Origin: Candidatus Omnitrophota bacterium
Lineage (GTDB): Bacteria > Omnitrophota > Gorgyraeia > Duberdicusellales > 4484-171
Length of the DNA: 64,000 nucleotides
Direction: 5' to 3'
Assembly (NCBI GenBank): GCA_037146775.1
Contig: JBAWWL010000005.1
Location: forward strand, 33,848 to 97,847
In this document: piece by piece, positions 2,324-63,360 of the stretch
Layout: the number at the start of each line of letters is the position of its first letter
Numbering within the stretch: the first letter of the stretch is position 1
The notes under the pieces: generated by a model
The model's input: only the letters and a program-made list of their open reading frames with translations
What the model was told of the DNA's origin: nothing
Database searches by the model: none
Position numbers and translations under genes: made by a program

Positions 2324-3664
2324 ATGAAGACAGAATTTTCTATTCATAGCCTTAGCGTAAAGAGAAAAATCTGGATTGCTATTTCGCTTGTTACCTGCAT
2401 CCCTTTCATTCTTCTGTTCCAGTATCTTAGCGGTTACCATATTTCTTTTTGGGCCGGCATGGCAGCGCTCGTGCTTGTTCTGTTAGGCTGGTGGATTGTT
2501 TTTGAGGTTTTTTCTTCAATCGCCAAACTCTATTCGCAATCAAGGAAGACGCTTGAAAAAATAGGCGAATACCCCCCGCTGATAACCAACGAAGTGGAAA
2601 GCCTTGATTCGGTCATTAATATTCTTTCTTCAAAAGTAAAAAGCAGCTTCGAGCAGCTCAAGGAATTTAGCCAGAAAACAGACGAGCTTAGCAAAGAAGT
2701 ATCGAAGAAAGTTTTTGTGTTATCAACCATACTGCAGGCAAACGATTTATTTTCCAAAGAAGTGCCTTGCGAGGAAATACTGCAATTTTTCATCCAGCGT
2801 TTATCCGAAACCTTGCGCATGAAAGTGGCCTTTTTCGCCTGCCGCAGCAATGAGGCAGGGAAATTGGTGGTGGTTACGTATATGGGAGTGGATGTTTCCA
2901 AAGTTGAGAATATTTTTGAAAAAGATCAAGCCCAGCTATCTAAAATAAAAAGGCCGGTAGTAGTTGATGCCAAAAACAAGTCCGGCGCCTATGCGGTGTT
3001 ACCCAAAGAATTGGGGACAGAAAATATTGTTCTTAACCCGGTAATATCAAAGGGTCAAATCATCGGCCTGTTGTGTGTCGGCAACAATGACGATAGTTTT
3101 GTGTTCAACGATGACGATCTGAACACCTTAAATCTTTTCTCGCAGAATGTTTCCCTTATCTGGGAACACGAGAAGCTCTCTGTCAAGGTAGATGAGCTTG
3201 AGGTGTTTGATTACTTGACCGGTTTGTATAACGAAAAGTTTTTAATAAAACGTCTGGATGAAGAGATCGGTAGGGCTTTAATTTATCAGCGGCCGTGCGG
3301 TTTCTTGTTGCTGGAAATATCGAATTACGATGATTACCAGAAAAACGTGGGGCTTTTGGAGGCCGAGAAGCTGGTTAAAAAAGCGGGAAAAATTTTTAGA
3401 GAAACTCTGCGGCCTATCGATATTCCCGCTAGGCTTGGGCCGAATCGCCTCGGCGCAATACTGATCGAAAAAAATAAACGGCAATCACAAACGGTTGCGC
3501 AGAGCGTCAAAGAAAGATTGATCTACGTGTTTAAAGAGCAAATCGACCTGACTTTTTCGGTGGCTGAGAACCCCATAGACGGCACTACCGCCCAAGAACT
3601 CATACAGTTCGCCCAAACTCACATTAGCCCGTCAGGAGCCAATGAACTCCCCCAAAAGGATTGA
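2324..3664 (+). CDS. membrane protein with a degenerate GGDEF domain (intact I-site RxxD, active site GGEEF replaced by GPNRL)
   Basis: N-terminal TM helices. GGDEF-fold start DYLTGLYNEKFL. RPID-IPAR-LGPNRL aligns to PleD RAID-LPCR-YGGEEF. Confidence 0.6.
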   Translation: MKTEFSIHSLSVKRKIWIAISLVTCIPFILLFQYLSGYHISFWAGMAALVLVLLGWWIVFEVFSSIAKLYSQSRKTLEKIGEYPPLITNEVESLDSVINILSSKVKSSFEQLKEFSQKTDELSKEVSKKVFVLSTILQANDLFSKEVPCEEILQFFIQRLSETLRMKVAFFACRSNEAGKLVVVTYMGVDVSKVENIFEKDQAQLSKIKRPVVVDAKNKSGAYAVLPKELGTENIVLNPVISKGQIIGLLCVGNNDDSFVFNDDDLNTLNLFSQNVSLIWEHEKLSVKVDELEVFDYLTGLYNEKFLIKRLDEEIGRALIYQRPCGFLLLEISNYDDYQKNVGLLEAEKLVKKAGKIFRETLRPIDIPARLGPNRLGAILIEKNKRQSQTVAQSVKERLIYVFKEQIDLTFSVAENPIDGTTAQELIQFAQTHISPSGANELPQKD

Positions 3665-4082
3665 GAAGCCTCTTGGCCAGATCTTGGTAGAAAGAGGTGT
3701 GATTAACCCCACACAACTCGAAAGGGCTCTTGATCTTCAGAAGAAAGAAGGCGGCCTTATCGGCGAGGTAATCGTAAAACTTGGTTTTGCTAAAGAGGAA
3801 GATATTGCCCATTGCCTTTCATTGCAATTCGGCTTTCCATACCTGCCCCTTGAAAACTACGAGGTATCCAGAGAGGTGGTTAGCCTTATCCCGAAAGGCG
3901 TCGCCAGCCACTACTGTTTGATTTCCCTCGATAAGATAGGCAATACCGTTACTATCGCTATGGCTAATCCGTTAAATCTTCAGGCAATAGAAGATTTGGA
4001 AGATTTAACCAAGAGTGATATTCAGGTATTTGTGAGCACGCCGACGGACATACGCAAATGTATAGAAAAATTCTATACCTAA
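3642..4082 (+). CDS. stand-alone T2SSE_N / MshEN-type domain protein (putative c-di-GMP receptor)
   Basis: 146 aa. Two 24-aa motifs PLGQILVERGVINPTQLERALDLQ and LIGEVIVKLGFAKEEDIAHCLSLQ separated by a 5-aa spacer (KKEGG). Both fit RLGxxLLxxGLLxxxxLxxxLxxQ. Confidence 0.65.
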   Translation: MNSPKRIEKPLGQILVERGVINPTQLERALDLQKKEGGLIGEVIVKLGFAKEEDIAHCLSLQFGFPYLPLENYEVSREVVSLIPKGVASHYCLISLDKIGNTVTIAMANPLNLQAIEDLEDLTKSDIQVFVSTPTDIRKCIEKFYT

Positions 4083-4120
4083 AAGTTTCAGTTTTGTGCC
4101 GTTCCCGCCGCTAGGATATT

Positions 4121-5851
4121 ATGCTGAAAGAAAAATTTACCGATTATTTGCTTGAGAAAAAATTAATTTCCAAAGAAGACCTGGAAAAGGTCCTTACTCT
4201 TCAGAAAGAGAAGGGCGGTTCCCTGGTCGAACTTTTCATAAAGCTTGGGTGCATGCAAGAGGCTCAACTTCTTAATATTCTTTCCGGCTACCTCTCTATT
4301 CCGCCGATGCGGGTGATCAATCTGGCTATCGCCCAGGAGACTATCAGCTTAATTTCCGAACGTTTTGCCCGCAGTTTCCACGTTATCCCCATCGGTAAAA
4401 TCGGTAACAGCATTACTCTGGCTATGGCAGACCCCCTGAATGTGGTGGTTATCGACGACTTAAAGAAAATTACCGGTTGTGAGATTAACCCGGTGATTGC
4501 GCCTTTGTCGGAAATAAAAGAAGCCATTATTGCCCATTACACCCGGCCGCCCACAGACTCTATCGAAGAGATCATCAAGGGCCAAAAAGCGGAAGCAATC
4601 GAAATTATTAAGCAGGAAAAAGTATTGCAGAACCAAACCCTGGAAACCATTGACGAGGCGCCGGTAATGAAATTTACCAACTCGCTGCTTAAACGGGCTG
4701 TGTCTGACCGGGCATCGGACATCCTGTTAGAGCCTTTAGAGAAATCAAGCAGGGTAAGATTCCGTATCGACGGGCTTCTGCGGGAGGTAGAGACATTTTC
4801 CAAAAAAATCCACCCTTTTGTGATATCGCGCATCAAGGTTATGTGTAATCTTAATATCGCGGAGCACCGCTTGCCTCAAGAAGGAAGGTTCCGTAGCTCA
4901 ATTTTAGAGCGTAGCGTAGACTTCCGAGTTTCGATTGTGCCTTCCAGCTTAGGGGAGAAAGTTGCTATGCGTATTTTAGATAAAAATACCGCGCTTTTGG
5001 ATTTGGAGCTGTTGGGCTTTGAGGCTGACGTGCTCAAACAGATGAGAGCAGACAGTAAAAGGCCTCACGGTTTAATGTTGGTGTGCGGCCCGACCGGCTC
5101 AGGTAAAACCACCAGCCTTTACTCGGTTATTTCCTATATTTATAGTCCGGAGCGTAACATTATCACTGTAGAAGACCCTATAGAGTATCAGTTAAAAGGT
5201 ATTAACCAGGTAAGCATTAATCCCGCCATCAACCTGACTTTTGCTTCGTGCTTGCGCTCAATCTTGCGCCAGGATCCGGATATTATCATGGTGGGTGAAA
5301 TCAGGGATTTTGAAACCGCAGATATTACCATCAAGGCGGCTCTCACCGGCCATTTGGTTTTTTCAACCCTGCATACCACAACCAGCGCCGGCTCTGTTAC
5401 CCGTCTTATCAATATGGGCATTGAACCATTCCTGCTTTCTTCTACTTTAATAAGCGTTCTCTCTCAGCGTTTAGTGAGAAAGCTATGCCCCAAATGCAAA
5501 GAAGAGGCAGTGATCCTTGAAAGTATCCGGGAAAAATATGGTATCGATAAAAAAACGAAACTATACAAGGCAGTAGGCTGTAACTCCTGCCAGCAGACAG
5601 GATATAGAGGCCGTATTGCTTTAAGCGAGTATTTACCGATTTCGCCAAAGATACGGTTTTTAGTGAATGCGGCCACTTCGGAGCACGTGATAAAAAAAGA
5701 AGCCCGTATGTTGGGTATGCGTACGCTGCGTGAAGACGGCATCCTGAAGCTCAACACCGGCCTCACTACTTTAGAGGAAGTGCTTAAGGTAACGGGGGCG
5801 GACGAACCATTGGGGTCAGAAGTCAGAGGTCAGAAGACAGAAGACAGATGA
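4121..5851 (+). CDS. pilB: type IV pilus assembly ATPase PilB/GspE family (paralog 1)
   Basis: 576 aa. N-terminal T2SSE_N domain. Walker A GPTGSGKTT, Asp box, His box. C-terminal tetracysteine (CPKC...CNSC). C-terminal tail GSEVRGQKTEDR is encoded by the heptamer-repeat array. Confidence 0.85.
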   Translation: MLKEKFTDYLLEKKLISKEDLEKVLTLQKEKGGSLVELFIKLGCMQEAQLLNILSGYLSIPPMRVINLAIAQETISLISERFARSFHVIPIGKIGNSITLAMADPLNVVVIDDLKKITGCEINPVIAPLSEIKEAIIAHYTRPPTDSIEEIIKGQKAEAIEIIKQEKVLQNQTLETIDEAPVMKFTNSLLKRAVSDRASDILLEPLEKSSRVRFRIDGLLREVETFSKKIHPFVISRIKVMCNLNIAEHRLPQEGRFRSSILERSVDFRVSIVPSSLGEKVAMRILDKNTALLDLELLGFEADVLKQMRADSKRPHGLMLVCGPTGSGKTTSLYSVISYIYSPERNIITVEDPIEYQLKGINQVSINPAINLTFASCLRSILRQDPDIIMVGEIRDFETADITIKAALTGHLVFSTLHTTTSAGSVTRLINMGIEPFLLSSTLISVLSQRLVRKLCPKCKEEAVILESIREKYGIDKKTKLYKAVGCNSCQQTGYRGRIALSEYLPISPKIRFLVNAATSEHVIKKEARMLGMRTLREDGILKLNTGLTTLEEVLKVTGADEPLGSEVRGQKTEDR

Positions 5852-5890
5852 CAGAGGACAGAGGACGGAAAGCAGAAGACAGGGGACAGG
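5814..5890. repeat. tandem heptanucleotide repeat array (GWCAGAR, about 11 units), locus A
   Basis: gtcagaa gtcagag gtcagaa gacagaa gacagat gacagag ... read directly from the sequence. Overlaps the pilB1 3' end. Confidence 0.8.
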
Positions 5891-6256
5891 GTGAAAATTA
5901 AAAGTGTAAAAGATTTGAAAGTATATAATATTGCTTACAGTTTAGCAATGGAAATATTTACAACAACAAAGAGTTTTCCCAAAGAAGAAATTTATTCATT
6001 AACAGACCAGATTAGGCGTTCTTCCCGTTCGGTGGCGATTAACATAAGGGAGGGTTTTGCAAAACGAAGATACGAGCAAGTATTTACACGTCATTTAAAT
6101 GATGCTTTTGGTTCTAGTGAAGAAACGAGAGGTTGGCTGAATTTTGCTAAAGATTGTCAATATATATCGCAGAAAATATACGAAAAATTAGATAAGCAAT
6201 ACGATGAGTTAAACGCAATGATATACGTTCTTATGAATAGTTGGCACGCTTTCTAG
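5891..6256 (+). CDS. four-helix-bundle protein (23S rRNA intervening-sequence protein family, PF05635-like)
   Basis: 121 aa. Family-typical N-terminus (IKSVKDLKVYNIAYSLAMEIF) and SSRSVAINIREG motif. GTG start. Confidence 0.6.
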   Translation: MKIKSVKDLKVYNIAYSLAMEIFTTTKSFPKEEIYSLTDQIRRSSRSVAINIREGFAKRRYEQVFTRHLNDAFGSSEETRGWLNFAKDCQYISQKIYEKLDKQYDELNAMIYVLMNSWHAF

Positions 6257-6284
6257 GTAAGAGCGATCAGGGGGGCAGATAATA

Positions 6285-6330
6285 TCTGACTTCCGACTTC
6301 TGACCTCTGTCTTCTGATCTCTGTTTTCTG
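6285..6330. repeat. tandem heptanucleotide repeat array, locus B (inverted orientation relative to locus A)
   Basis: tctgact tccgact tctgacc tctgtct tctgatc tctgttt is the reverse complement of GWCAGAR units. Confidence 0.8.
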
Positions 6331-6339
6331 GAGGAAAAC

Positions 6340-8019
6340 GTGAATGTAAAAGAGAAAATTTTAGACTACATCAAAACAACCAAGCCGATAGAGAAGGGGC
6401 TTTTGAAAAACATTGAAGGCACGGCAGATTATACTCATTTTAAACACATGCTTATTGAACACAATTTAATCAGCGAGGAGGAGTTGCTTCTTGTATTTTC
6501 CAAAGAATTCAAAATGCCTTTTTTAGACTTAAAAAAATACCGCATACCGCACAAAAGCAAAGATTTGATTCCCCGGGAAACCGCTTTTAAATACCGGGTT
6601 TTCCCTTTGTGTAAAATCGGCACTGTCCTGACTATCGCTACTTCTAATCCCCTGGATATTATTGCTTATGACGATATAAAAATAATTACCGGCGTTGAAA
6701 AGGTGGATTTGGTTCTTTGCCGCGAGGAAGATATTTTGAAAGCGCTCGATAACCTATACAAAATGGATGATATCAGCAAATTAGTAGATGAAGATTCTTC
6801 TATCGAGGTCGGTGAAGCTTTCGAAGCGAAAGAATCTTTAGAAACTTTAATCGAAGAAAGCAGCCGCCCGCCGATCGTGCGAGCGGTTGATTTGTTTATT
6901 TATAATGCGCTCAAAAAACGGGCGTCGGATATTCATATTGAACCGTATCAGGACAGGCTGCTGGTAAAATACAGGGTGGACGGAGTATTGTGCGAAGAGT
7001 TTAATTTTCCCAAAAAGAACCAGCAAGCTGTTTTAGCGCGCTTAAAAATAATTTCTTCACTGGATATTACCGAATCGCGCCTTCCCCAGGACGGCAGGTT
7101 CAAAGTTAAGTTTGAGGATCGGGAGATTGATTTTAGGGTATCCAGCCTGCCTACGAATTTCGGGGAAAAATTCGTATTGCGGGCGTTGGATAAAGAAAAC
7201 CTTTCTATTGGTTTAAGAAAATTAGGTTTTTCCGAAGAGCCGCTTAGACTCTTTGAGGGTGCGATTAAGGCGCCATTCGGCATTATTATAGTTACCGGTC
7301 CCACGGGGAGCGGGAAATCTACAACCCTGTATTCCATTGTCAGCCAAATAAATACGCCCGAGAAAAATATTGTCACTATCGAAGACCCCATAGAGTACCA
7401 ACTTGAAGGCATTACTCAATTGAGCGTGAGTACGGACATAGGGCTTACTTTTGCCGCCGGCTTGCGTTCAGTGTTACGCCAGTCACCGGATATTATCATG
7501 GTGGGGGAAATCAGAGATTCGGAAACCGCGGACATTGCTATTAAAGCCGCACTTACCGGAGAGATCATACTTTCTACTTTACATACGAATACGGCGGTAG
7601 GCGCGCTTACCCGGCTCATTGATATGGGTATAGAGCCGTTTTTACTTGCTTCCTCTCTGGTTGCTACCACGGCCCAACGTTTAATACGCAAGCTATGCCA
7701 GAAATGCCGGGAAAAATATCAGATAGAAGAAGAGGTCTTGAAAAAATTAAATGTCAACACTAAAACGAACGAATTTTACCGGCCTAAAGGCTGTCATTAT
7801 TGTAATGATACCGGTTATCATGGACGCATTGCGATCTTGGAAGTTTTGCTTTTAGATGATAGAATGAAAGAAATGATTGTTGAGCGCCGTTCAGAAGATG
7901 AGATTACCCAGTATGCCATCAAAGAGCGCGGATACAGGCCTTTGCGTGAAGATGGTATTTTGCGCTGCGTGGAGGGTGTTACTTCGCTTGAAGAAGTGTT
8001 GAGGGCGACGACGGAGTAG
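6340..8019 (+). CDS. pilB: type IV pilus assembly ATPase PilB/GspE family (paralog 2)
   Basis: 559 aa. GTG start with GGAGG SD. N-terminal T2SSE_N-like domain. Walker A GPTGSGKST. Tetracysteine CQKC...CHYC. Confidence 0.85.
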   Translation: MNVKEKILDYIKTTKPIEKGLLKNIEGTADYTHFKHMLIEHNLISEEELLLVFSKEFKMPFLDLKKYRIPHKSKDLIPRETAFKYRVFPLCKIGTVLTIATSNPLDIIAYDDIKIITGVEKVDLVLCREEDILKALDNLYKMDDISKLVDEDSSIEVGEAFEAKESLETLIEESSRPPIVRAVDLFIYNALKKRASDIHIEPYQDRLLVKYRVDGVLCEEFNFPKKNQQAVLARLKIISSLDITESRLPQDGRFKVKFEDREIDFRVSSLPTNFGEKFVLRALDKENLSIGLRKLGFSEEPLRLFEGAIKAPFGIIIVTGPTGSGKSTTLYSIVSQINTPEKNIVTIEDPIEYQLEGITQLSVSTDIGLTFAAGLRSVLRQSPDIIMVGEIRDSETADIAIKAALTGEIILSTLHTNTAVGALTRLIDMGIEPFLLASSLVATTAQRLIRKLCQKCREKYQIEEEVLKKLNVNTKTNEFYRPKGCHYCNDTGYHGRIAILEVLLLDDRMKEMIVERRSEDEITQYAIKERGYRPLREDGILRCVEGVTSLEEVLRATTE

Positions 8020-8065
8020 AACAGATGACAGACGTCAGAAGACAGAAGGCAGAGGGCAGAAGGTT
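8019..8065. repeat. tandem heptanucleotide repeat array, locus C
   Basis: aacagat gacagac gtcagaa gacagaa ggcagag ggcagaa, immediately after the pilB2 stop. Confidence 0.75.
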
Positions 8066-8083
8066 GGGGGATTAACGCGTTGC

Positions 8084-8131
8084 ACGATTAACGAATTGAG
8101 GTATTAAACAATTTTTTAATTCGTTAATTCT
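8084..8131. promoter_or_regulatory. inverted repeat (ttaacgaatt ... aattcgttaa) in a TTAAT-rich intergenic region upstream of pilC
   Basis: 10-bp arms separated by about 20 nt. Function not established. Confidence 0.3.
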
Positions 8132-8167
8132 TTAATCATTTAATGCATTAATTATTTAATAAAAACT

Positions 8168-9370
8168 ATGGCGAGTTTTTCTTATCATATCAAAAACAGG
8201 GAAGGCAAGGATGTCAAGGGTATTGCCGAAGCCGAGTCAAAAGAAAAACTAATAGAGTATTTTCAGAAGGAAGGTTTTGTCATTTTCGATATTTTCGAAA
8301 CCAAGCGGAAAACAAAAGTTTCCCGCTACGGAAAAATTTCCAGCGAAGACTTAGTGATTTTTTCCCGCCAACTTACCACCTTGATTGAAAGTAACATTTC
8401 CATCGTCGAAGCTTTAGAGATTCTTAAGTCCCAGGTGGAGAAGCCGTTTTTTAGAGAAGTATTAGGCATGGTGTTGAAAGATGTACGCGAAGGCTCTTCG
8501 CTTTCCAGCGCTTTTGCCAAGCACGCGCGGGTATTTCCGGAAATCTATATCAGCATGGTTGAAGCAGGTGAGGCCAGCGGAAATTTAGCATCCATTTTAG
8601 AGCGCGTGTCAGGGTATCTTGAGAAAAGCAGCGCTCTACGCAAAAAAGTAATTTCATCTTTATATTACCCCGTGATTATCGTTCTGATGGCAACTGCGAT
8701 TACCGGCTTCCTGCTTTTGAAGGTCATCCCGACTTTTAAGAGTGTTTTTGATTCGTTGGGAGGAAAGCTTCCTCTACCTACACAAATTTTAATATTAGTC
8801 TCCAACTTTTTACAGGCATATTTCGTTTATCTTGTTATCGGATTTGTTGCGGCTATTATTTTATTTTTGCGTTATATCAACACCAACAGAGGAAAACGGC
8901 AATACCACAAGTTACTTATCCGGCTGCCGATCGTAGGTGATTTAGTTAAAAAAATTGCCATTGCCCGTTTTTCCCGCACTTTTGCCACCTTAATCAAAAG
9001 CGGCGTATCGATTATCAAATGTTTGGACATTGTAGCTAATACTTCCGGCAACAAAATTATCGAGGACGCGGTGAAAAAATCAAAAAAACTTATCCAGGAA
9101 GGCCAAACCATTTCTACTCCCCTGGAAGAAAGTGGTATTTTTCCCCCTATGGTAGTTAAGATGGTGGCCATAGGCGAAAAAAGCGGTAAATTGGAGGAGA
9201 TGCTTTCCAAGATAGCGCAATTCTACGAAGAACAGACTGATGCCATGGTAGCCGGACTTTCCAGCCTGATTGAGCCGGTTATTATCGCCTTTTTAGGTGT
9301 GATTGTGGGTGGTATAGTTGTTTCTTTATTCCTACCGATTTTCCAGATTACTCAATATCTGAATAAATAA
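8168..9370 (+). CDS. pilC: type IV pilus inner-membrane platform protein PilC/GspF family
   Basis: 400 aa. Duplicated GspF domain. Three TM segments. Typical PilC N-terminal cytoplasmic domain. Confidence 0.85.
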   Translation: MASFSYHIKNREGKDVKGIAEAESKEKLIEYFQKEGFVIFDIFETKRKTKVSRYGKISSEDLVIFSRQLTTLIESNISIVEALEILKSQVEKPFFREVLGMVLKDVREGSSLSSAFAKHARVFPEIYISMVEAGEASGNLASILERVSGYLEKSSALRKKVISSLYYPVIIVLMATAITGFLLLKVIPTFKSVFDSLGGKLPLPTQILILVSNFLQAYFVYLVIGFVAAIILFLRYINTNRGKRQYHKLLIRLPIVGDLVKKIAIARFSRTFATLIKSGVSIIKCLDIVANTSGNKIIEDAVKKSKKLIQEGQTISTPLEESGIFPPMVVKMVAIGEKSGKLEEMLSKIAQFYEEQTDAMVAGLSSLIEPVIIAFLGVIVGGIVVSLFLPIFQITQYLNK

Positions 9371-9551
9371 CAATTTCAAGCTTAAATTTACTGCTTCCCA
9401 GCCCAGTTTGTCTATACTTCCTCTCTCTATCCCCCCACTCAATACTCACTACTATATACTCACGACTATGTTCGAGAACGCAATTTAGCTTCTTGAGCGC
9501 CAAAAGTTATAACTATTCAATGTTTATAAGGCTTTCTGGCTCCTGTCTAAA

Positions 9552-9580
9552 TTGACAAGTGAGGGGGGATGTGGTATATT
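9552..9580 (+). promoter_or_regulatory. sigma70-type promoter (TTGACA, 17-nt spacer, TATATT) about 300 nt upstream of pilA1
   Basis: Exact -35 hexamer. 4/6 -10 match (TATATT vs TATAAT). 17-nt spacing. Confidence 0.45.
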
Positions 9581-9887
9581 CAAATTGAGCCATAATGTTC
9601 TTTGAAAACAAAGAGATTCTTAAGATTAAGCGATTTTATTTAGTATAGGTAGAGGAAATAGTAATAAATTACTTGTGTTTATATATAATTCGTATTTAAA
9701 TACTGTTATATTCTATCCCGCTATTTCTATCATCTATATCTACTTTTAATCTTAAGAAATTATTACGAAATAAGCACAATTTATCTTTTTCTTCATACAT
9801 ATATTTTATATTGAGCAAAGCTCTGATGGAAGGAGGTGGATAAAGGGCAAAAGGGCTTTGAGTGATTAACCAAAAAAGGAGGATACA

Positions 9888-10310
9888 ATGAAAAAAGGTT
9901 TTACTCTTGTAGAAATTATGATCGTAGTCGCAATCATTGCCTTATTGGCGGCCTTAGCCATACCTAACCTGTTAAGGTCAAGATTAAATGCTTCGGAAGG
10001 GTATGCTCAAGCAACCTTAAGAGCTATTTCGACGGCTGCTGAAAGTTATGCTGCTGCCCATGAGGGGAAATATCCAGCGGTCAGTCTCACTGCAGATTTA
10101 TTTGGCGCTGACCCAAAATATATCAACAAAGATTACGTAGCGGATTGTACTGCTGGAAGTCCTTGTCAGGGGTATAGTTTTGCTTATACCGCTGCTGTTA
10201 CGGGTTACACTTCAACCGCCACACCGCAAGGAGCCCTTGTTGCTAAGGCAAAATCATACAGTATTACTACTGGTGGTGTTTTGACCGGCGCAGTTGCTGC
10301 GGCAGAATAG
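9888..10310 (+). CDS. pilA: type IVa major pilin (prepilin, N-methylation site G|FTLVE)
   Basis: MKKG|FTLVEIMIVVAIIALLAALAIPN class-III signal peptide. C-terminal Cys pair (DCTAGSPCQGY). AAGGAGG SD. Confidence 0.85.
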   Translation: MKKGFTLVEIMIVVAIIALLAALAIPNLLRSRLNASEGYAQATLRAISTAAESYAAAHEGKYPAVSLTADLFGADPKYINKDYVADCTAGSPCQGYSFAYTAAVTGYTSTATPQGALVAKAKSYSITTGGVLTGAVAAAE

Positions 10311-11093: not shown

Positions 11094-12089
11094 ATGCAAT
11101 TTCCATACACCAAATTTCTAAATTTTGGCGAGTTTTTCAATAAAAAGAACGAAGATTTTGTCGCTATTAATGTAGGCAATTATCACGTCAAGGGGTTGAT
11201 AGTAAAATCAGGCAAACCAACCGACTATTTTTTGAAAGAAAGAAAAGACATATCAACAACCCTCAAAGAAATCTGGCAAGAAAAAAAGATTACTACCGAT
11301 AACGTAGCAATTTCCGTTAAAGACCCCACCACATTGACCAGATATTTTCCTTTTCCGAAAATCGATAAGAAAAAACTGCGCCAGAGCCTGTTTTACGAAC
11401 TCAATAAACACATTCCTTTTTCTCCGGAAGAGGTATATTTTGATTTTGCTCTTTTAGGAGACGCAAGTCCAACGCAATCATGGTTATTGCTCGCCGTAGC
11501 TAAAAAAGAATTTATCAATAACATACTGGATATCTTCACTCGCGAAAAACTAAACGTCACGTATATCAGTTTAGACAGTATTTGCCTGGTGAATTTTTTT
11601 CTTCATTACTACGATCAGCACAAAAAAACAAATACTTGTCTTTTAGATGTCGGAAGCAGCTTTTCGACGCTGACGATATTGCGTTCTGGCGTACCGTTTT
11701 TAACCAGGGATATAAGCTTTAGCGCTAAGGATGTTTTTGGGGTTATTTCTCATATCAAAAATATTCCGTTACCTGAAATAGAAAAGCAGCTACTTTTGCC
11801 TAACAACCAGGAGCTGCTTGAGCTCGCGCAGGATAGCCTGACAAATTTGTGCAAAGAGGTGAAAAACTCCTTTGATTATTTTGAAGTGAACAAAGGCGAG
11901 CATATAGAACAAATGTATCTTTCCGGTGGCTTAACCTATCTGGCGGGTGTCGAAGCTATTTTTAAGGACTATTTAGGCATTGAGACCGCGTTATTGAGTA
12001 ATACGCAAGCCGCGGCAGCGGGATTTTCTGACGAGGCCTTTCAAAAGCTAAAGAGAAGTTTTACGGTTGCTTTCGGCCTTTTGGTATAA
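11094..12089 (+). CDS. pilM: type IV pilus assembly protein PilM (actin-like ATPase fold)
   Basis: 331 aa. Position upstream of pilNOPQ. Acetate/sugar-kinase-like fold motifs. Confidence 0.75.
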   Translation: MQFPYTKFLNFGEFFNKKNEDFVAINVGNYHVKGLIVKSGKPTDYFLKERKDISTTLKEIWQEKKITTDNVAISVKDPTTLTRYFPFPKIDKKKLRQSLFYELNKHIPFSPEEVYFDFALLGDASPTQSWLLLAVAKKEFINNILDIFTREKLNVTYISLDSICLVNFFLHYYDQHKKTNTCLLDVGSSFSTLTILRSGVPFLTRDISFSAKDVFGVISHIKNIPLPEIEKQLLLPNNQELLELAQDSLTNLCKEVKNSFDYFEVNKGEHIEQMYLSGGLTYLAGVEAIFKDYLGIETALLSNTQAAAAGFSDEAFQKLKRSFTVAFGLLV

Positions 12090-13182: not shown

Positions 13183-13508
13183 TTATCGTGGCCGGCTTGG
13201 CGTTGCTGTGTGCCTGTACTCTTTTTGCCAAAGAAGAGAAATACCCTTTTGACCAGAATACTCGCGATCCTTTTTTACCTTTGGTCAGCAAGACAGGCCA
13301 ACTGCTTATACAAAAAGAAGCGACGCAGGGCGGTATGGTGCTTAAAGGTATCATCTATTCGTCTCGAGGGAGCTTAGCAATTATAAGTAATGAAGTATTT
13401 AAAAAAGATGATAAAATAAATGATTATAGTATAATGAAAATAGGCCGAAAGAAAGTTATTTTAAAAAAAGGTAAAGAAATACTTGTTTTAAAGTTGGAGG
13501 GAAAATGA
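13155..13508 (+). CDS. pilP: PilP-like lipoprotein
   Basis: 117 aa. Signal peptide with Cys. Conserved RDPF motif. Position immediately before the secretin. Confidence 0.5.
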   Translation: MWFSKNKRIVIVAGLALLCACTLFAKEEKYPFDQNTRDPFLPLVSKTGQLLIQKEATQGGMVLKGIIYSSRGSLAIISNEVFKKDDKINDYSIMKIGRKKVILKKGKEILVLKLEGK

Positions 13509-15133
13509 TCAAATATCGAATGTCTGATAATATGGGTCAGAAGTCAGAGGTCAGAAGTCAGAGGTCAGAAGTCAGAGGACAGATGTCAGAGGACAGACGA
13601 CAGAGGTCGGATGTCAGATTTTTCTGTTTTCTTCTTTGTGCCTTCTGTTTTCTGACAACAGCCTTCTACCCTCTGTTTTCTTTTGCCCAGGAGGAGATTA
13701 TTCCGGTTATTAAATTTAAAGACGCGGATATCAAGGTGGTGCTGCAATCTATAGCCCAGAAGGCTGTTAAGGACGGGCGGAAGGTAAATATTGTTATCAG
13801 CCCAAAGGTGGAGGGCTTGGTGACAGTTGATTTGGAAAGTGTTAACTGGCAGACTGCGCTCAAGGGTGTGCTCAATGCCTACGGTTATAGTTATCGTTGG
13901 GCAGGGGAGAACATTATTTTGGTAGCGACAATTGATGAAATTAAAGAGCGCGAGGTGCAAGATAAAGAAAGACAGGAAATCGAAGTTCCCAAGATCAAGA
14001 TTTTTAAATTAAAATATATTGATGCAAATGATGCGAAAAAAACTATTACTCCTTTGCTTTCTCCGGTTGGTAAAGTGTCTGTTTTGGAGGCTACTGGCCA
14101 AGCAGGATGGGAGTTTGGAGACGATTTTGCTAAGCGTAAGAGGGCAGAGCAGGGACAAATTTCCCGCACTAAATCATTAATAGTTTCCGATGTTTCAAAA
14201 AGCCTGGAAGAGATAGAGAAATTGCTGGTTGAGGTAGACATTATGCCCAAACAGGTGTTGATAAAAGTCAAGATTATGGAAGTTGACAAGGATGTGCTAG
14301 ATGACATTGGTTTTGAATGGGGAACAGGAAAAGGTGGAGCCGGAGGAGTGTCGTTTGATCAGTTAGACGTTAATGGTAAAAATACAAAAAATTTAGGTGG
14401 TCGCATGTGGACTGGAGTGGATCCTTCTGTTTTGACAGATGGTGGTTTAAATACGGCCAAAGAAGGATTGAAGATCGATTTTAAGAGTATTACCGGCTCA
14501 CAGTTTGAAGTGATTATGCATGCCTTGGAAAAAGACAAACGAGCAATCACCCTTTCCGCACCTTCTATTTTAACTCTGAACAATCAAGAGGCTTCGATAT
14601 TGGTGGGTTCGAAATTTCCCATAGTCAAAACCCAGGTAAGCGAACAAAGCAACCAGATTATTGGTGGTTCCTTAGAAAAATATCAGGATATCGGTATACA
14701 GTTAAATGTAGTACCGCAAATATGCGGCGAAGAGGAAAATTATGTAAATATGATTCTACACCCGGTAGTTTCAACCAAGACCGGGACTGTGGATATTAAA
14801 ACTACTGCTGACCCGCCGACAATACTTGCGCAATATCCGATGCTTGAGGTCAGAGAGGCGCAAACGCAGGCAGTCGTCAAGGATGGCGAAACCATTGTTT
14901 TAGGTGGTTTATTGAAAGACGCCAAATCAAAAGAATATAGAGGTATCCCGGTTTTAGATAAGCTTCCTTTTTTCGGTTCTCTTTTTAGGCGCGAGGGTGA
15001 TAATAGATCAAAAATAGATTTATTGATCTTTATCACCGCGCACGTGATACGGCAAGGAGAAGTTCTGCCGCAGGAAGCAATAAACATAACTCCGGTTACT
15101 TCCAAGTTCAAAAGAAAACAAAATGTATACTGA
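13505..15133 (+). CDS. pilQ: type IV pilus secretin PilQ
   Basis: C-terminal secretin signature (VLGGLL...RGIPVLDKLPFFGSLFR). The N-terminus is interrupted by heptamer repeats, so the true start may be the ATG at 13583. Confidence 0.85.
   Translation: MIKYRMSDNMGQKSEVRSQRSEVRGQMSEDRRQRSDVRFFCFLLCAFCFLTTAFYPLFSFAQEEIIPVIKFKDADIKVVLQSIAQKAVKDGRKVNIVISPKVEGLVTVDLESVNWQTALKGVLNAYGYSYRWAGENIILVATIDEIKEREVQDKERQEIEVPKIKIFKLKYIDANDAKKTITPLLSPVGKVSVLEATGQAGWEFGDDFAKRKRAEQGQISRTKSLIVSDVSKSLEEIEKLLVEVDIMPKQVLIKVKIMEVDKDVLDDIGFEWGTGKGGAGGVSFDQLDVNGKNTKNLGGRMWTGVDPSVLTDGGLNTAKEGLKIDFKSITGSQFEVIMHALEKDKRAITLSAPSILTLNNQEASILVGSKFPIVKTQVSEQSNQIIGGSLEKYQDIGIQLNVVPQICGEEENYVNMILHPVVSTKTGTVDIKTTADPPTILAQYPMLEVREAQTQAVVKDGETIVLGGLLKDAKSKEYRGIPVLDKLPFFGSLFRREGDNRSKIDLLIFITAHVIRQGEVLPQEAINITPVTSKFKRKQNVY
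13536..13618. repeat. tandem heptanucleotide repeat array, locus D (about 12 units) inside the annotated 5' end of pilQ
   Basis: gtcagaa gtcagag x3 then gacagat gtcagag gacagac ... Translates to SEVRSQRSEVRGQMSEDRRQRSDVR. Confidence 0.8.
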
Positions 15134-55295: not shown

Positions 55296-55404
55296 AAATA
55301 AGGAAAAGATAGGCCAGGCAAGCATTTTTGTATCCTTGTAAAAGCAGCGCAAATATGTTATATACAAGGTGTAAAGTGTAAAAGTGACAATTTGGTATTT
55401 ACCC

Positions 55405-55490
55405 AGTGAAAAGGCAAACCAAGAGTAATCTTGGGACGCAAAGCTAAAGGTCCCGCGAGTAGCGGGAAGCCTGGCTGCCAAAGGGGAGGA
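55405..55490 (+). promoter_or_regulatory. c-di-GMP-I (GEMM) riboswitch aptamer
   Basis: GGCAAACC + 12-nt GNRA hairpin (aagaGUAAucuu) + GGGACGCAAAGC in the same order and spacing as the Vc2 aptamer. Followed by a P2-like hairpin cccgc-gagua-gcggg. Confidence 0.75.
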
Positions 55491-63303: not shown

Positions 63304-63360
63304 GTCAGAAGACAGACGTCAGAAAACAGAAGTCAGATGACAGAAGTCAGACGTCAGAAA
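63304..63360. repeat. tandem heptanucleotide repeat array, locus E
   Basis: gtcagaa gacagac gtcagaa aacagaa gtcagat gacagaa gtcagac gtcagaa, between metY and cysK. Confidence 0.8.

Follow-up and report, generated by a model that had tools for sequence, protein, structure and literature searches.

Why is a small gene enclosed between two arrays of short tandem repeats, one inverted relative to the other, lodged between two pilB genes? The question is raised by positions 5814-6330 of a 64-kb stretch of Candidatus Omnitrophota DNA (the window, by which we mean the whole 64,000-nt stretch that was analysed), which comes from a metagenome-assembled genome; NCBI lists a 100% identical protein under the same organism name. 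We consider it very probable that this segment is an inserted hairpin cassette of the type found as intervening sequences (IVSs) in 23S rRNA, here consisting of a four-helix-bundle (4HB) protein gene and two complementary arms. The locus is made up of the following features:

4121-5851, + strand: pilB1, an ATPase gene with T2SSE and MshEN domains (Pfam PF00437, E=2.8e-132)
5814-5890, + strand: upstream purine-rich arm, 11 tandem heptamers with the consensus GWCAGAR (sequence reading and repeat search)
5891-6256, + strand: 4HB / 23S rRNA IVS protein gene, 121 aa, GTG start (PF05635, TIGR02436)
6257-6284, + strand: non-repeat spacer of 28 nt, from the stop codon to the downstream arm
6285-6330, + strand: downstream pyrimidine-rich arm, 6.5 heptamers with the consensus YTCTGWC, the reverse complement of the upstream unit; pairs with 5816-5862
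6331-8019, + strand: GGAGG ribosome-binding site (6331-6335) directly 3′ of the arm, then pilB2 (6340-8019)

The 121-aa protein matched the Pfam family 23S_rRNA_IVP (PF05635; E=1.1e-33, 116 bits, cut-off 33.8) and the NCBIfam model TIGR02436, 'four helix bundle protein' (E=9e-31), and both neighbours of its gene encode PilB-type ATPases with T2SSE and MshEN domains. An earlier note, made by reading the sequence, had assigned the open reading frame (ORF) and its neighbours to these families and had described a forward and an inverted heptamer array around the ORF. Domain searches upheld the former, and the repeat search the latter, with 11 and 6.5 heptamers, respectively. The note's wording that the ORF is precisely flanked is right on the 5′ side, where the array abuts the GTG start codon, but not on the 3′ side, where 28 nt separate the stop codon from the array. 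The upstream arm reads GGTCAGA AGTCAGA GGTCAGA AGACAGA AGACAGA TGACAGA GGACAGA GGACGGA AAGCAGA AGACAGG GGACAGG, its innermost units (GACAGGG GACAGGG) being Shine-Dalgarno-like, and the downstream arm consists of six heptamers and four further nucleotides (TCTGACT TCCGACT TCTGACC TCTGTCT TCTGATC TCTGTTT TCTG). pilB1 runs for 12 codons (GSEVRGQKTEDR) into the upstream arm, and its TGA stop codon (5849-5851) lies inside it. With one mismatch allowed, the double heptamer GWCAGARGWCAGAR had 29 matches in the window, where shuffled sequences gave an expectation of 0.13. The two arms are complementary at 88% of positions over 34 nt (5816-5849 with 6284-6317) or at 78% over 46 nt; the energy of their RNA duplex is −58.7 kcal/mol (z=−6.3 versus a shuffled arm), and the stem was seen in the minimum-free-energy fold of the 561-nt region (z=−3.7).

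To learn whether relatives carry the pilB pair without the cassette, we compared contigs that encode the closest PilB2 homologs. In four lineages (L082/83, L085/86, L087 and L089/90; PilB2 74-77% identical) pilB1 lies directly next to pilB2, with a spacer of 35-225 bp and no 4HB gene, within a common operon order of GGDEF, MshEN, pilB1, pilB2, pilC, pilins and pilM. The empty sites that the earlier note had proposed looking for thus exist in related lineages, and its view of an insertion between otherwise adjacent pilB genes is supported. The end of PilB1 locates the insertion point: orthologs in operons without the cassette end in ...DEPL(G), while the protein of the window continues to ...DEPLGSEVRGQKTEDR, so that the cassette begins exactly at the former stop codon. 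In a 98%-identical relative, recovered from two samples as L081 and L097 and contained in JGI 3300013137, the cassette occupies this very junction, and the PilB1 of L081 also runs into the array, ending in ...DEPLETEVRGQKTDDR*. The arms differ in copy number between the two strains, with 11 units in the window and 12 in L081 upstream, and 6.5 and about 10 downstream. No empty allele at the strain level (>95% flank identity) was found when metagenome contigs were scanned with a 21-mer from the 3′ end of pilB1, which matched only L081 and the second sample of the same strain, both filled. We conclude that an ancestor of this lineage of Omnitrophota acquired the cassette at the stop codon of pilB1.

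The earlier note had also considered the segment a recombination footprint that duplicated pilB, as the two flanking PilB genes might suggest. PilB1 and PilB2 are 42% identical, and are therefore old paralogs, and the pair is adjacent without a cassette in the four lineages; both facts exclude such a footprint. Likewise, the 4HB gene could be taken for Avd, the accessory gene of diversity-generating retroelements (DGRs), which has a related four-helix-bundle fold. The profile matches to bAvd PF22296 (25.6 bits, cut-off 40) and NF033474 (26.7 bits, cut-off 80) are weak and fall short of the family thresholds, the gene has PilB genes on either side, and neither a reverse transcriptase (RT) nor a template/variable repeat pair lies nearby. 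Avd genes are not known to be hairpin-bracketed. We regard a duplication footprint or an Avd gene as extremely improbable.

The pilB1-pilB2 junction is a site where small hairpin-bracketed genes come and go. Several of the 'empty' spacers of the relatives contain small hairpins of other heptamers, such as CTGAAAG in L082 and L087, with others at the pilB2-pilC junction, and in L084 (78% identical PilB2) GxxExxY genes (TIGR04256 / PF13366 PDDEXK_3) occupy at least four pil-operon junctions (4906-5370, 7092-7505, 11523-11984 and 1-138). At the pilB1-pilB2 and pilB2-pilC junctions of L084, GCARACGGAT direct repeats stand upstream of the GxxExxY gene and inverted copies downstream. GxxExxY is thus a second gene family with the cassette layout, which differs from the 4HB cassettes in the unrelated PD-(D/E)XK fold of its protein and in its longer, non-heptameric repeat unit.

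Intervening sequences in 23S rRNA have been known since about 1990, and those that carry an ORF in helix 45 are found in Coxiella burnetii, Leptospira and Brucella. The IVS of C. burnetii is 428 nt long, interrupts helix 45 and carries an S23p ORF preceded by two to three tandem GACAGAT and one GACAGAA, in numbers that vary between strains; its 28-bp terminal stem is cut within the stem by RNase III in vitro (PMC4990558). An rRNA example for comparison came from a plasmid collection. The plasmid AZO_p2 of Azospirillum lipoferum 4B (L095) has a homologous ORF (tblastn, 32% identity, E=3e-15), without an annotated feature, that lies inside a 23S rRNA gene (Rfam LSU model, 2545 bits). On its 5′ side the rRNA sequence (...GAAGCTGCGGAT) is followed by TCAGAG GACGGAT GACAGAG GACGGAG GACAGAA and then by the ORF, and on its 3′ side the ORF is followed by ATCCGTC CTCTGTC TTCTGTC ATCCGTC TTCTGA, after which the rRNA resumes. 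In terms of the E. coli 23S sequence, the insertion point is at helix 45. The arm duplex has nearly the same energy in L095 (−60.4 kcal/mol) as in the window (−58.7 kcal/mol).

The window's unit matches the ORF-bearing rRNA IVSs in gene family (S23p / PF05635), in heptamer (tandem GACAGAD/GACGGAD, with a copy number that varies between strains), in the arrangement of the arms (a sense ORF in the loop of a long terminal-inverted-repeat stem) and in size class (about 430-520 nt). It differs in that it sits in an mRNA operon, between the pilB1 stop codon and the pilB2 ribosome-binding site, rather than replacing an rRNA helix loop; in its longer and less perfect arms (11 and 6.5 units, 78-88%, versus a near-perfect stem of about 28-30 bp); in an ORF that is under purifying selection; and in that excision by RNase III is demonstrated for the rRNA elements and would be expected here by analogy. 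Rfam reported no rRNA in the window, and none of the five conserved 23S motifs tried was present among the 91 loci from genomes and metagenomes (L001-L091). Since an IVS is defined by its location in rRNA, a feature that the window's element does not have, we file the element as an IVS-like variant and not as a strict member.

To see how general the layout is, we scanned for homologs of the 4HB protein, taking one genome per GTDB species, and obtained 80 loci at 47-76% identity. Nearly all closer homologs and many distant ones have a purine-rich tandem array 5′ of the gene and its reverse complement 3′ of it. As our first periodicity detector missed short or degenerate arms, we scored the flanks by ungapped complementarity between the 130 nt upstream and the 170 nt downstream. 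At a score of at least 12, complementary flanks were found at 57 of 78 4HB loci (73%) but at only 20 of 463 control ORFs (4%; Fisher p=5e-42), with further ORFs of these loci serving as controls. Among the controls that scored highest, many proved to be additional 4HB paralogs whose units differ, and the others included a GxxExxY gene, a DUF559-like gene, the gene of a transposase associated with repetitive extragenic palindromic (REP) sequences (RAYT) and an unclassified large ORF. Neither of the two outcomes by which the earlier note would have been undone was observed: relatives do not carry the gene at this place without the repeats, and other 4HB copies are repeat-flanked.

The repeat period (6, 7 or 8 nt) and the unit follow the 4HB protein clade. 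The clade of the window's protein (≥60% identity) uses the 7-nt GWCAGAR in Omnitrophota, Planctomycetota, Atribacterota, Desulfobacterota, Cloacimonadota, Acetothermia and other hosts, and proteins 65-76% identical to that of the window were found in the first five of these, including a closed chromosome of Desulfobacterota (CP070694), and in others. Other clades have the 7-nt units GATRGAA, GGTGACA and GGGACGA (Brocadiales), the 8-nt units GGGAGAAA or GGGGTGAA (Bacteroidales, Acidobacteriota, Chloroflexota) or the 6-nt unit GGCAGT (Bacteroidota, Calditrichia). The two arms of one locus had a common unit (≤2 mismatches) in 35 of 45 cases, compared with 16% for arms of different clades. Complementarity is thus kept while the arm sequence changes, as would be expected under selection for pairing or with a single source from which both arms are renewed. 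The same gene-plus-arms layout, with G-rich 8-mers, was seen in finished genomes of cultured Nostoc and Leptolyngbya and is therefore not an artefact of metagenome assembly. The distribution seen is that of a cassette family spread horizontally between lineages and phyla. In Neomarinimicrobiota, 4HB paralogs that lie a few kb apart have different units, one of the 8-nt CCATGCAT type and one of the 7-nt GGTGACA type (L034:2283-2750 and 5001-5369; L031:382-804 and 2607-2975).

How might such an insertion work, and why would it be tolerated? We propose that the cassette is a promoterless gene that would be carried on the pil operon transcript. There, the purine and pyrimidine arms are predicted to form an imperfect duplex, about 34-46 bp long, that leaves the ORF in its loop. 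RNase III may then cut the duplex, as might be expected from the Coxiella experiments on the homologous 23S rRNA element, which would free an ORF RNA of about 450 nt and separate the pilB1 and pilB2 messages, so that the insertion would cost the host little. The ribosome-binding site of the 4HB gene is probably provided by those units of the longer purine arm that lie innermost and stay unpaired (AGGGG/ACAGGG, ahead of the GTG), and that of pilB2, GGAGG, would lie just outside the pyrimidine arm; the 4HB protein would be made and maintained. The arms change rapidly through repeat slippage yet remain complementary, and the family would spread between lineages and phyla. We lean towards this mechanism in full, including excision by RNase III, with considerably more reserve than towards the insertion itself.

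Co-transcription with the host operon is supported indirectly. A sigma-70-like promoter was not found on the + strand from 5146 to 6403, nor was a terminator between pilB1 and pilB2. Across the family, the 4HB gene is co-oriented with the upstream gene at 58 of 62 loci (p=1.5e-4 versus a baseline of 75%) and with the downstream gene at 52 of 63, and at 21 of 39 loci the upstream gene has its stop codon within the array or no more than 10 nt from the point where the array begins. Mismatches in the stems, read on the sense strand, were G:U in 121 cases and A:C in 77 (p=0.002), an excess that points modestly to pairing as RNA over pairing as DNA. Some cassettes adjoin tRNA genes: they abut the 3′ side of tRNA-Leu(taa) or the 5′ side of tRNA-Arg(ccg), or they separate tRNA-Leu from tRNA-Gly within a tRNA cluster (L007:402-910, L011:4891-5399, L013:4871-5369, L026:5001-5475, L046:892-1524); the tRNA transcripts that host them are processed anyway.

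Arrays with the cassette's unit are not confined to the cassette. The window contains five GWCAGAR arrays, and all of its strong solo arrays share the cassette's unit. Those outside the cassette are located as follows:

8021-8062, + strand: another purine-rich array of GWCAGAR, which begins 2 nt past the stop codon of pilB2
13535-13680, + strand: hairpin without an ORF, in which 12 GWCAGAR units run straight into a degenerate inverted arm; in frame at the 5′ end of the secretin (PilQ) ORF
63304-63359, + strand: solo array of 8 GWCAGAR units that begins where the upstream gene ends, at its stop codon

The array at 8021-8062 also pairs with the arm at 6285-6330 (−49.6 kcal/mol, z=−6.1), so that pilB2 is itself bracketed, by a pyrimidine arm and then a purine arm, and ranks second among 114 ORFs in flank complementarity; this array is either an alternative pairing partner or the remnant of another cassette. 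It is followed in the pilB2-pilC spacer (8021-8160) by another small hairpin, made of 8-nt TTAATNNN units, and in L081 this spacer is 74 nt shorter than in the window and the array longer. The secretin ORF (13505-15133) reads in frame through the ORF-less hairpin, whose purine arm becomes a charged stretch (GQKSEVRSQRSEVRGQMSEDRRQRSDVR) and whose pyrimidine arm becomes a hydrophobic, signal-peptide-like stretch (FFCFLLCAFCFLTTAFYPLFSFA) at the N-terminus of PilQ; the ortholog in L082 has an ordinary N-terminus, without the hairpin. Genes 3′ of the cassettes in L001, L002/L003, L027, L030 and L040 likewise have their starts upstream of the pyrimidine arm, which seems to code for their signal peptides.

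Several points weigh against the reading of an inserted and RNA-processed cassette. Arrays of the cassette's unit and of other units also stand alone in the window and in related loci. Near cassettes, solo arrays have the cassette's unit in 28% of cases, against 15% under the null; arrays are therefore not exclusively cassette ends, and some process makes tandem-repeat hairpins independently of 4HB genes in these genomes. In the window's duplex, the W position of the unit gives rise to a mismatch about once per 7-8 bp. Processing by RNase III would be an extrapolation from the 23S rRNA elements, and the ORF of the Coxiella IVS is decaying and probably untranslated (PMC4990558), unlike that of the window. 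The G:U excess is modest, and a transcription-linked C-to-T bias could be another source of it. As the arms are equally complementary as DNA, the inverted arrays may have a role at the DNA level (cruciform or single-stranded hairpin). Finally, some of the taxonomic labels of metagenome-assembled genomes behind the cross-phylum claim may be binning errors.

The solo arrays lend themselves to a different account, in which the arrays are host-wide intergenic short-tandem-repeat hairpins that arise by slippage, and the 4HB gene merely sits there or is regulated by them, without forming an insertion unit. This account would explain the three other GWCAGAR sites in the window, none of which has a 4HB gene, the arrays of the unrelated units CTGAAAG, GATAGAT and AAAATCA at the pil-operon junctions of relatives, the ACGCTAW hairpins in every spacer of a chemotaxis operon (L004) and the low share of solo arrays near cassettes that match the cassette's unit. 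Dispersed heptamers of this sort have been described as the short tandemly repeated repetitive (STRR) sequences of cyanobacteria, GGGAATC in Xanthomonas and TAACTGA in Beggiatoaceae (PMC4692102, PMC4679880). They resemble the arrays studied here in being intergenic 7-nt arrays, often just after stop codons and sometimes in inverted pairs, with a copy number that varies among relatives; those of Xanthomonas often form convergent pairs, with no gene mentioned between them (PMC4692102). They were described without an enclosed gene, however, whereas the pair in the window encloses a member of a specific gene family whose phylogeny the unit tracks. Slippage in the host is also hard to reconcile with units and periods that follow the 4HB clade across host phyla, with paralogs in one genome that differ in unit (GGTGACA versus CCATGCAT in L034), with bracketing of 73% of 4HB genes as opposed to 4% of other ORFs, several of which are themselves 4HB or GxxExxY genes, and with the same gene and arms inside 23S rRNA, where there is no ordinary spacer. 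We consider this account unlikely.

Alternatively, the arrays could be the terminal inverted repeats or single-stranded hairpins of a DNA-level mobile element, acted on by an enzyme encoded elsewhere, as in REP sequences or bacterial interspersed mosaic elements (BIMEs) with their RAYTs, or in miniature transposable elements with inverted repeats (MITEs) and their parent transposases; ORF-less hairpins would then be non-autonomous copies. The cassette shares with these systems a gene between inverted copies of a short repeat that is also dispersed in spacers, as well as ORF-less hairpin derivatives, such as the purine/pyrimidine hairpin at 13535-13680. The presence/absence polymorphism at the pilB1-pilB2 junction and the patchy cross-phylum distribution are in line with such an element, and a RAYT gene flanked by REP palindromes in L036 has the same formal layout. 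The arms are tandem arrays, though, and not single palindromes, and their length and sequence vary freely between strains that are 98% related, unlike recognition ends. No target-site duplication was found at 5806-5814 / 6330-6340, where the earlier note had suggested seeking one, as the left flank (...CCATTGGG) and the right flank (GGAGGAAAAC...) have no common direct repeat. Nor does the cassette contain a transposase: the 4HB gene is its sole ORF, and its product has no HUH/Y1 or other transposase domain and a fold without known catalytic activity. An excess of G:U on the sense strand and co-orientation with the upstream gene are also not expected of a purely DNA-level element. We judge a DNA-level element quite improbable, and we rejected assignment to the terminal-inverted-repeat transposons or MITEs. 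The earlier note's proposal of a minimal mobile or insertion cassette is hence supported for an inserted unit, but not for terminal inverted repeats of the transposon type, as there is neither a duplication nor a transposase and the arrays also occur solo.

The 4HB protein itself is under purifying selection. Compared with that of the 98% relative, its gene gave a dN/dS of 0.16; six other pairs without saturation gave 0.06-0.13, and in two more the synonymous sites were saturated. Its solved relatives by sequence are XCC0516 (PDB 2GSC) and BT_0352 (PDB 2RLD), and no others. An AlphaFold2 model of the 121-aa protein is all-helical, of moderate confidence (pLDDT 66.5), and found its best fold matches in the same two structures; the next matches were the DGR protein Avd, with much weaker E-values and a TM-score of about 0.6-0.66 to 8UB7 and 4DWL. 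The nearest solved folds are homopentamers, followed by Avd bound to RT-RNA (8UB7), and by homology we propose that the protein is a nucleic-acid-binding homopentamer. The family is large: at an E-value of 0.001 or better and a clustering threshold of 50% identity, it comprises 10,640 clusters. An exact-sequence look-up of P0001, which sought an independent assembly of the window's own gene, returned no record, and a scan of viral contigs for carriage by phages gave one distant match (32% identity), which leaves phage vectors unsupported.

These properties invite the idea of a 4HB protein that recognises its own unit sequence-specifically, binding with one subunit per unit, and helps to propagate or maintain the arrays, possibly with an RT of the host as Avd does. 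It would fit the clade-specific units and periods, the sharing of the cassette's unit by all strong solo arrays in the window, the nearest folds and the purifying selection. The match of solo arrays to the resident unit (28% versus 15%) is barely above chance, however, and too weak to support propagation of arrays in trans; proteins with identity down to 32% also come with GACRGAR, the cassette has no adjacent RT, and the scores remain under the Avd family cut-offs. We treat this idea as improbable. A bolder form of it would see the 4HB family and the tandem-repeat hairpins as one widespread system, in which the 6-8-nt unit recognised would be specific to each clade, perhaps with one subunit of the pentamer for each unit. 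The protein might then maintain or propagate the arrays as RAYT does for REP, without a transposase fold and possibly via an RNA intermediate as in Avd-RT. Both steps are speculative, and we give them little credence; if true, they would explain the origin of the rRNA IVSs and of long-unexplained heptamer arrays, STRR and the like.

Returning to the reading of the segment as an inserted IVS-type cassette, the comparison with L081 shows that the history or mutation rate of the cassette differs from that of its surroundings. Synonymous divergence (dS) between the two strains was 0.75 for the 4HB gene (5891-6256 versus L081:2489-2863), 3-6 times the values of 0.29 for pilB1 and 0.12 for pilB2, and nucleotide identity was 96-98% in the flanks and 71-87% in the cassette. 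Each of three processes could account for these differences: replacement of the cassette, conversion of the gene by paralogs, or a mutation rate that is raised locally. A second drop in identity, to 79-92%, lies at positions 3400-4500 (the 3′ end of the GGDEF gene, the MshEN gene and the 5′ part of pilB1), with 96-98% from 4500 to 8000. This drop is a recombination mosaic, recombination between strains being common here.

The gene family, the rRNA IVSs, their excision by RNase III and, for Coxiella, the heptamers are already published. Stand-alone 4HB / S23 genes such as those of XCC0516 and BT_0352 share with the window's gene the family, the fold and the habit of sitting between co-directional operon genes; copies wedged in cas operons have been read as CRISPR-associated (PMC3936711, PMC10910872), an association that may simply reflect wedging into operons. 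Inverted tandem arrays, which we see around the window's gene, are not described around non-rRNA copies in the searchable literature, and the flanks of XCC0516 are not mentioned in the Xanthomonas repeat paper (PMC4692102). In the searchable full-text literature, outside of which most subscription journals lie, we found no general rule of inverted arrays enclosing non-rRNA 4HB genes, no tracking of protein clade by period and unit, and no insertion of cassettes at stop codons in operons and in tRNA clusters across phyla; heptamers at an IVS ORF appear there only in the Coxiella paper (PMC4990558).

The results indicate that ORF-bearing rRNA IVSs are one habitat of a far larger family of hairpin-bracketed cassettes that also occupies ordinary operons and tRNA clusters in many phyla. 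The origin and mobility of IVSs and the role of their ORFs thereby become testable in many more systems. The results also suggest a reason for the tolerance of such insertions, namely their removal by RNA processing. A named gene family is also tied to tandem heptamer arrays that have so far been treated as anonymous repeats. For genome annotation, it matters that the arms lengthen upstream ORFs, as in pilB1, and can be read as coding, as at the N-terminus of PilQ.

Some further observations concern the surroundings of these loci. The pil operon in the window begins with a GAF-GGDEF gene, and the sole Rfam match in the window is a c-di-GMP-I riboswitch aptamer at 55403-55482 (RF01051, 63.7 bits). 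In the chemotaxis operon of another Omnitrophota locus (L004:5800-8200), the ACGCTAW hairpins fill the spacers on both sides of all three genes (cheD, cheY-like and cheB) and bear no relation to the GWCAGAR arms around the 4HB gene of that locus. In L036, copies of the palindrome GGTACACTCCGGGAGTGTACC flank both the RAYT gene (6504-7187) and a neighbouring large ORF (8712-10082); this layout is the classical one of REP/RAYT, and a 4HB cassette lies in the same locus.

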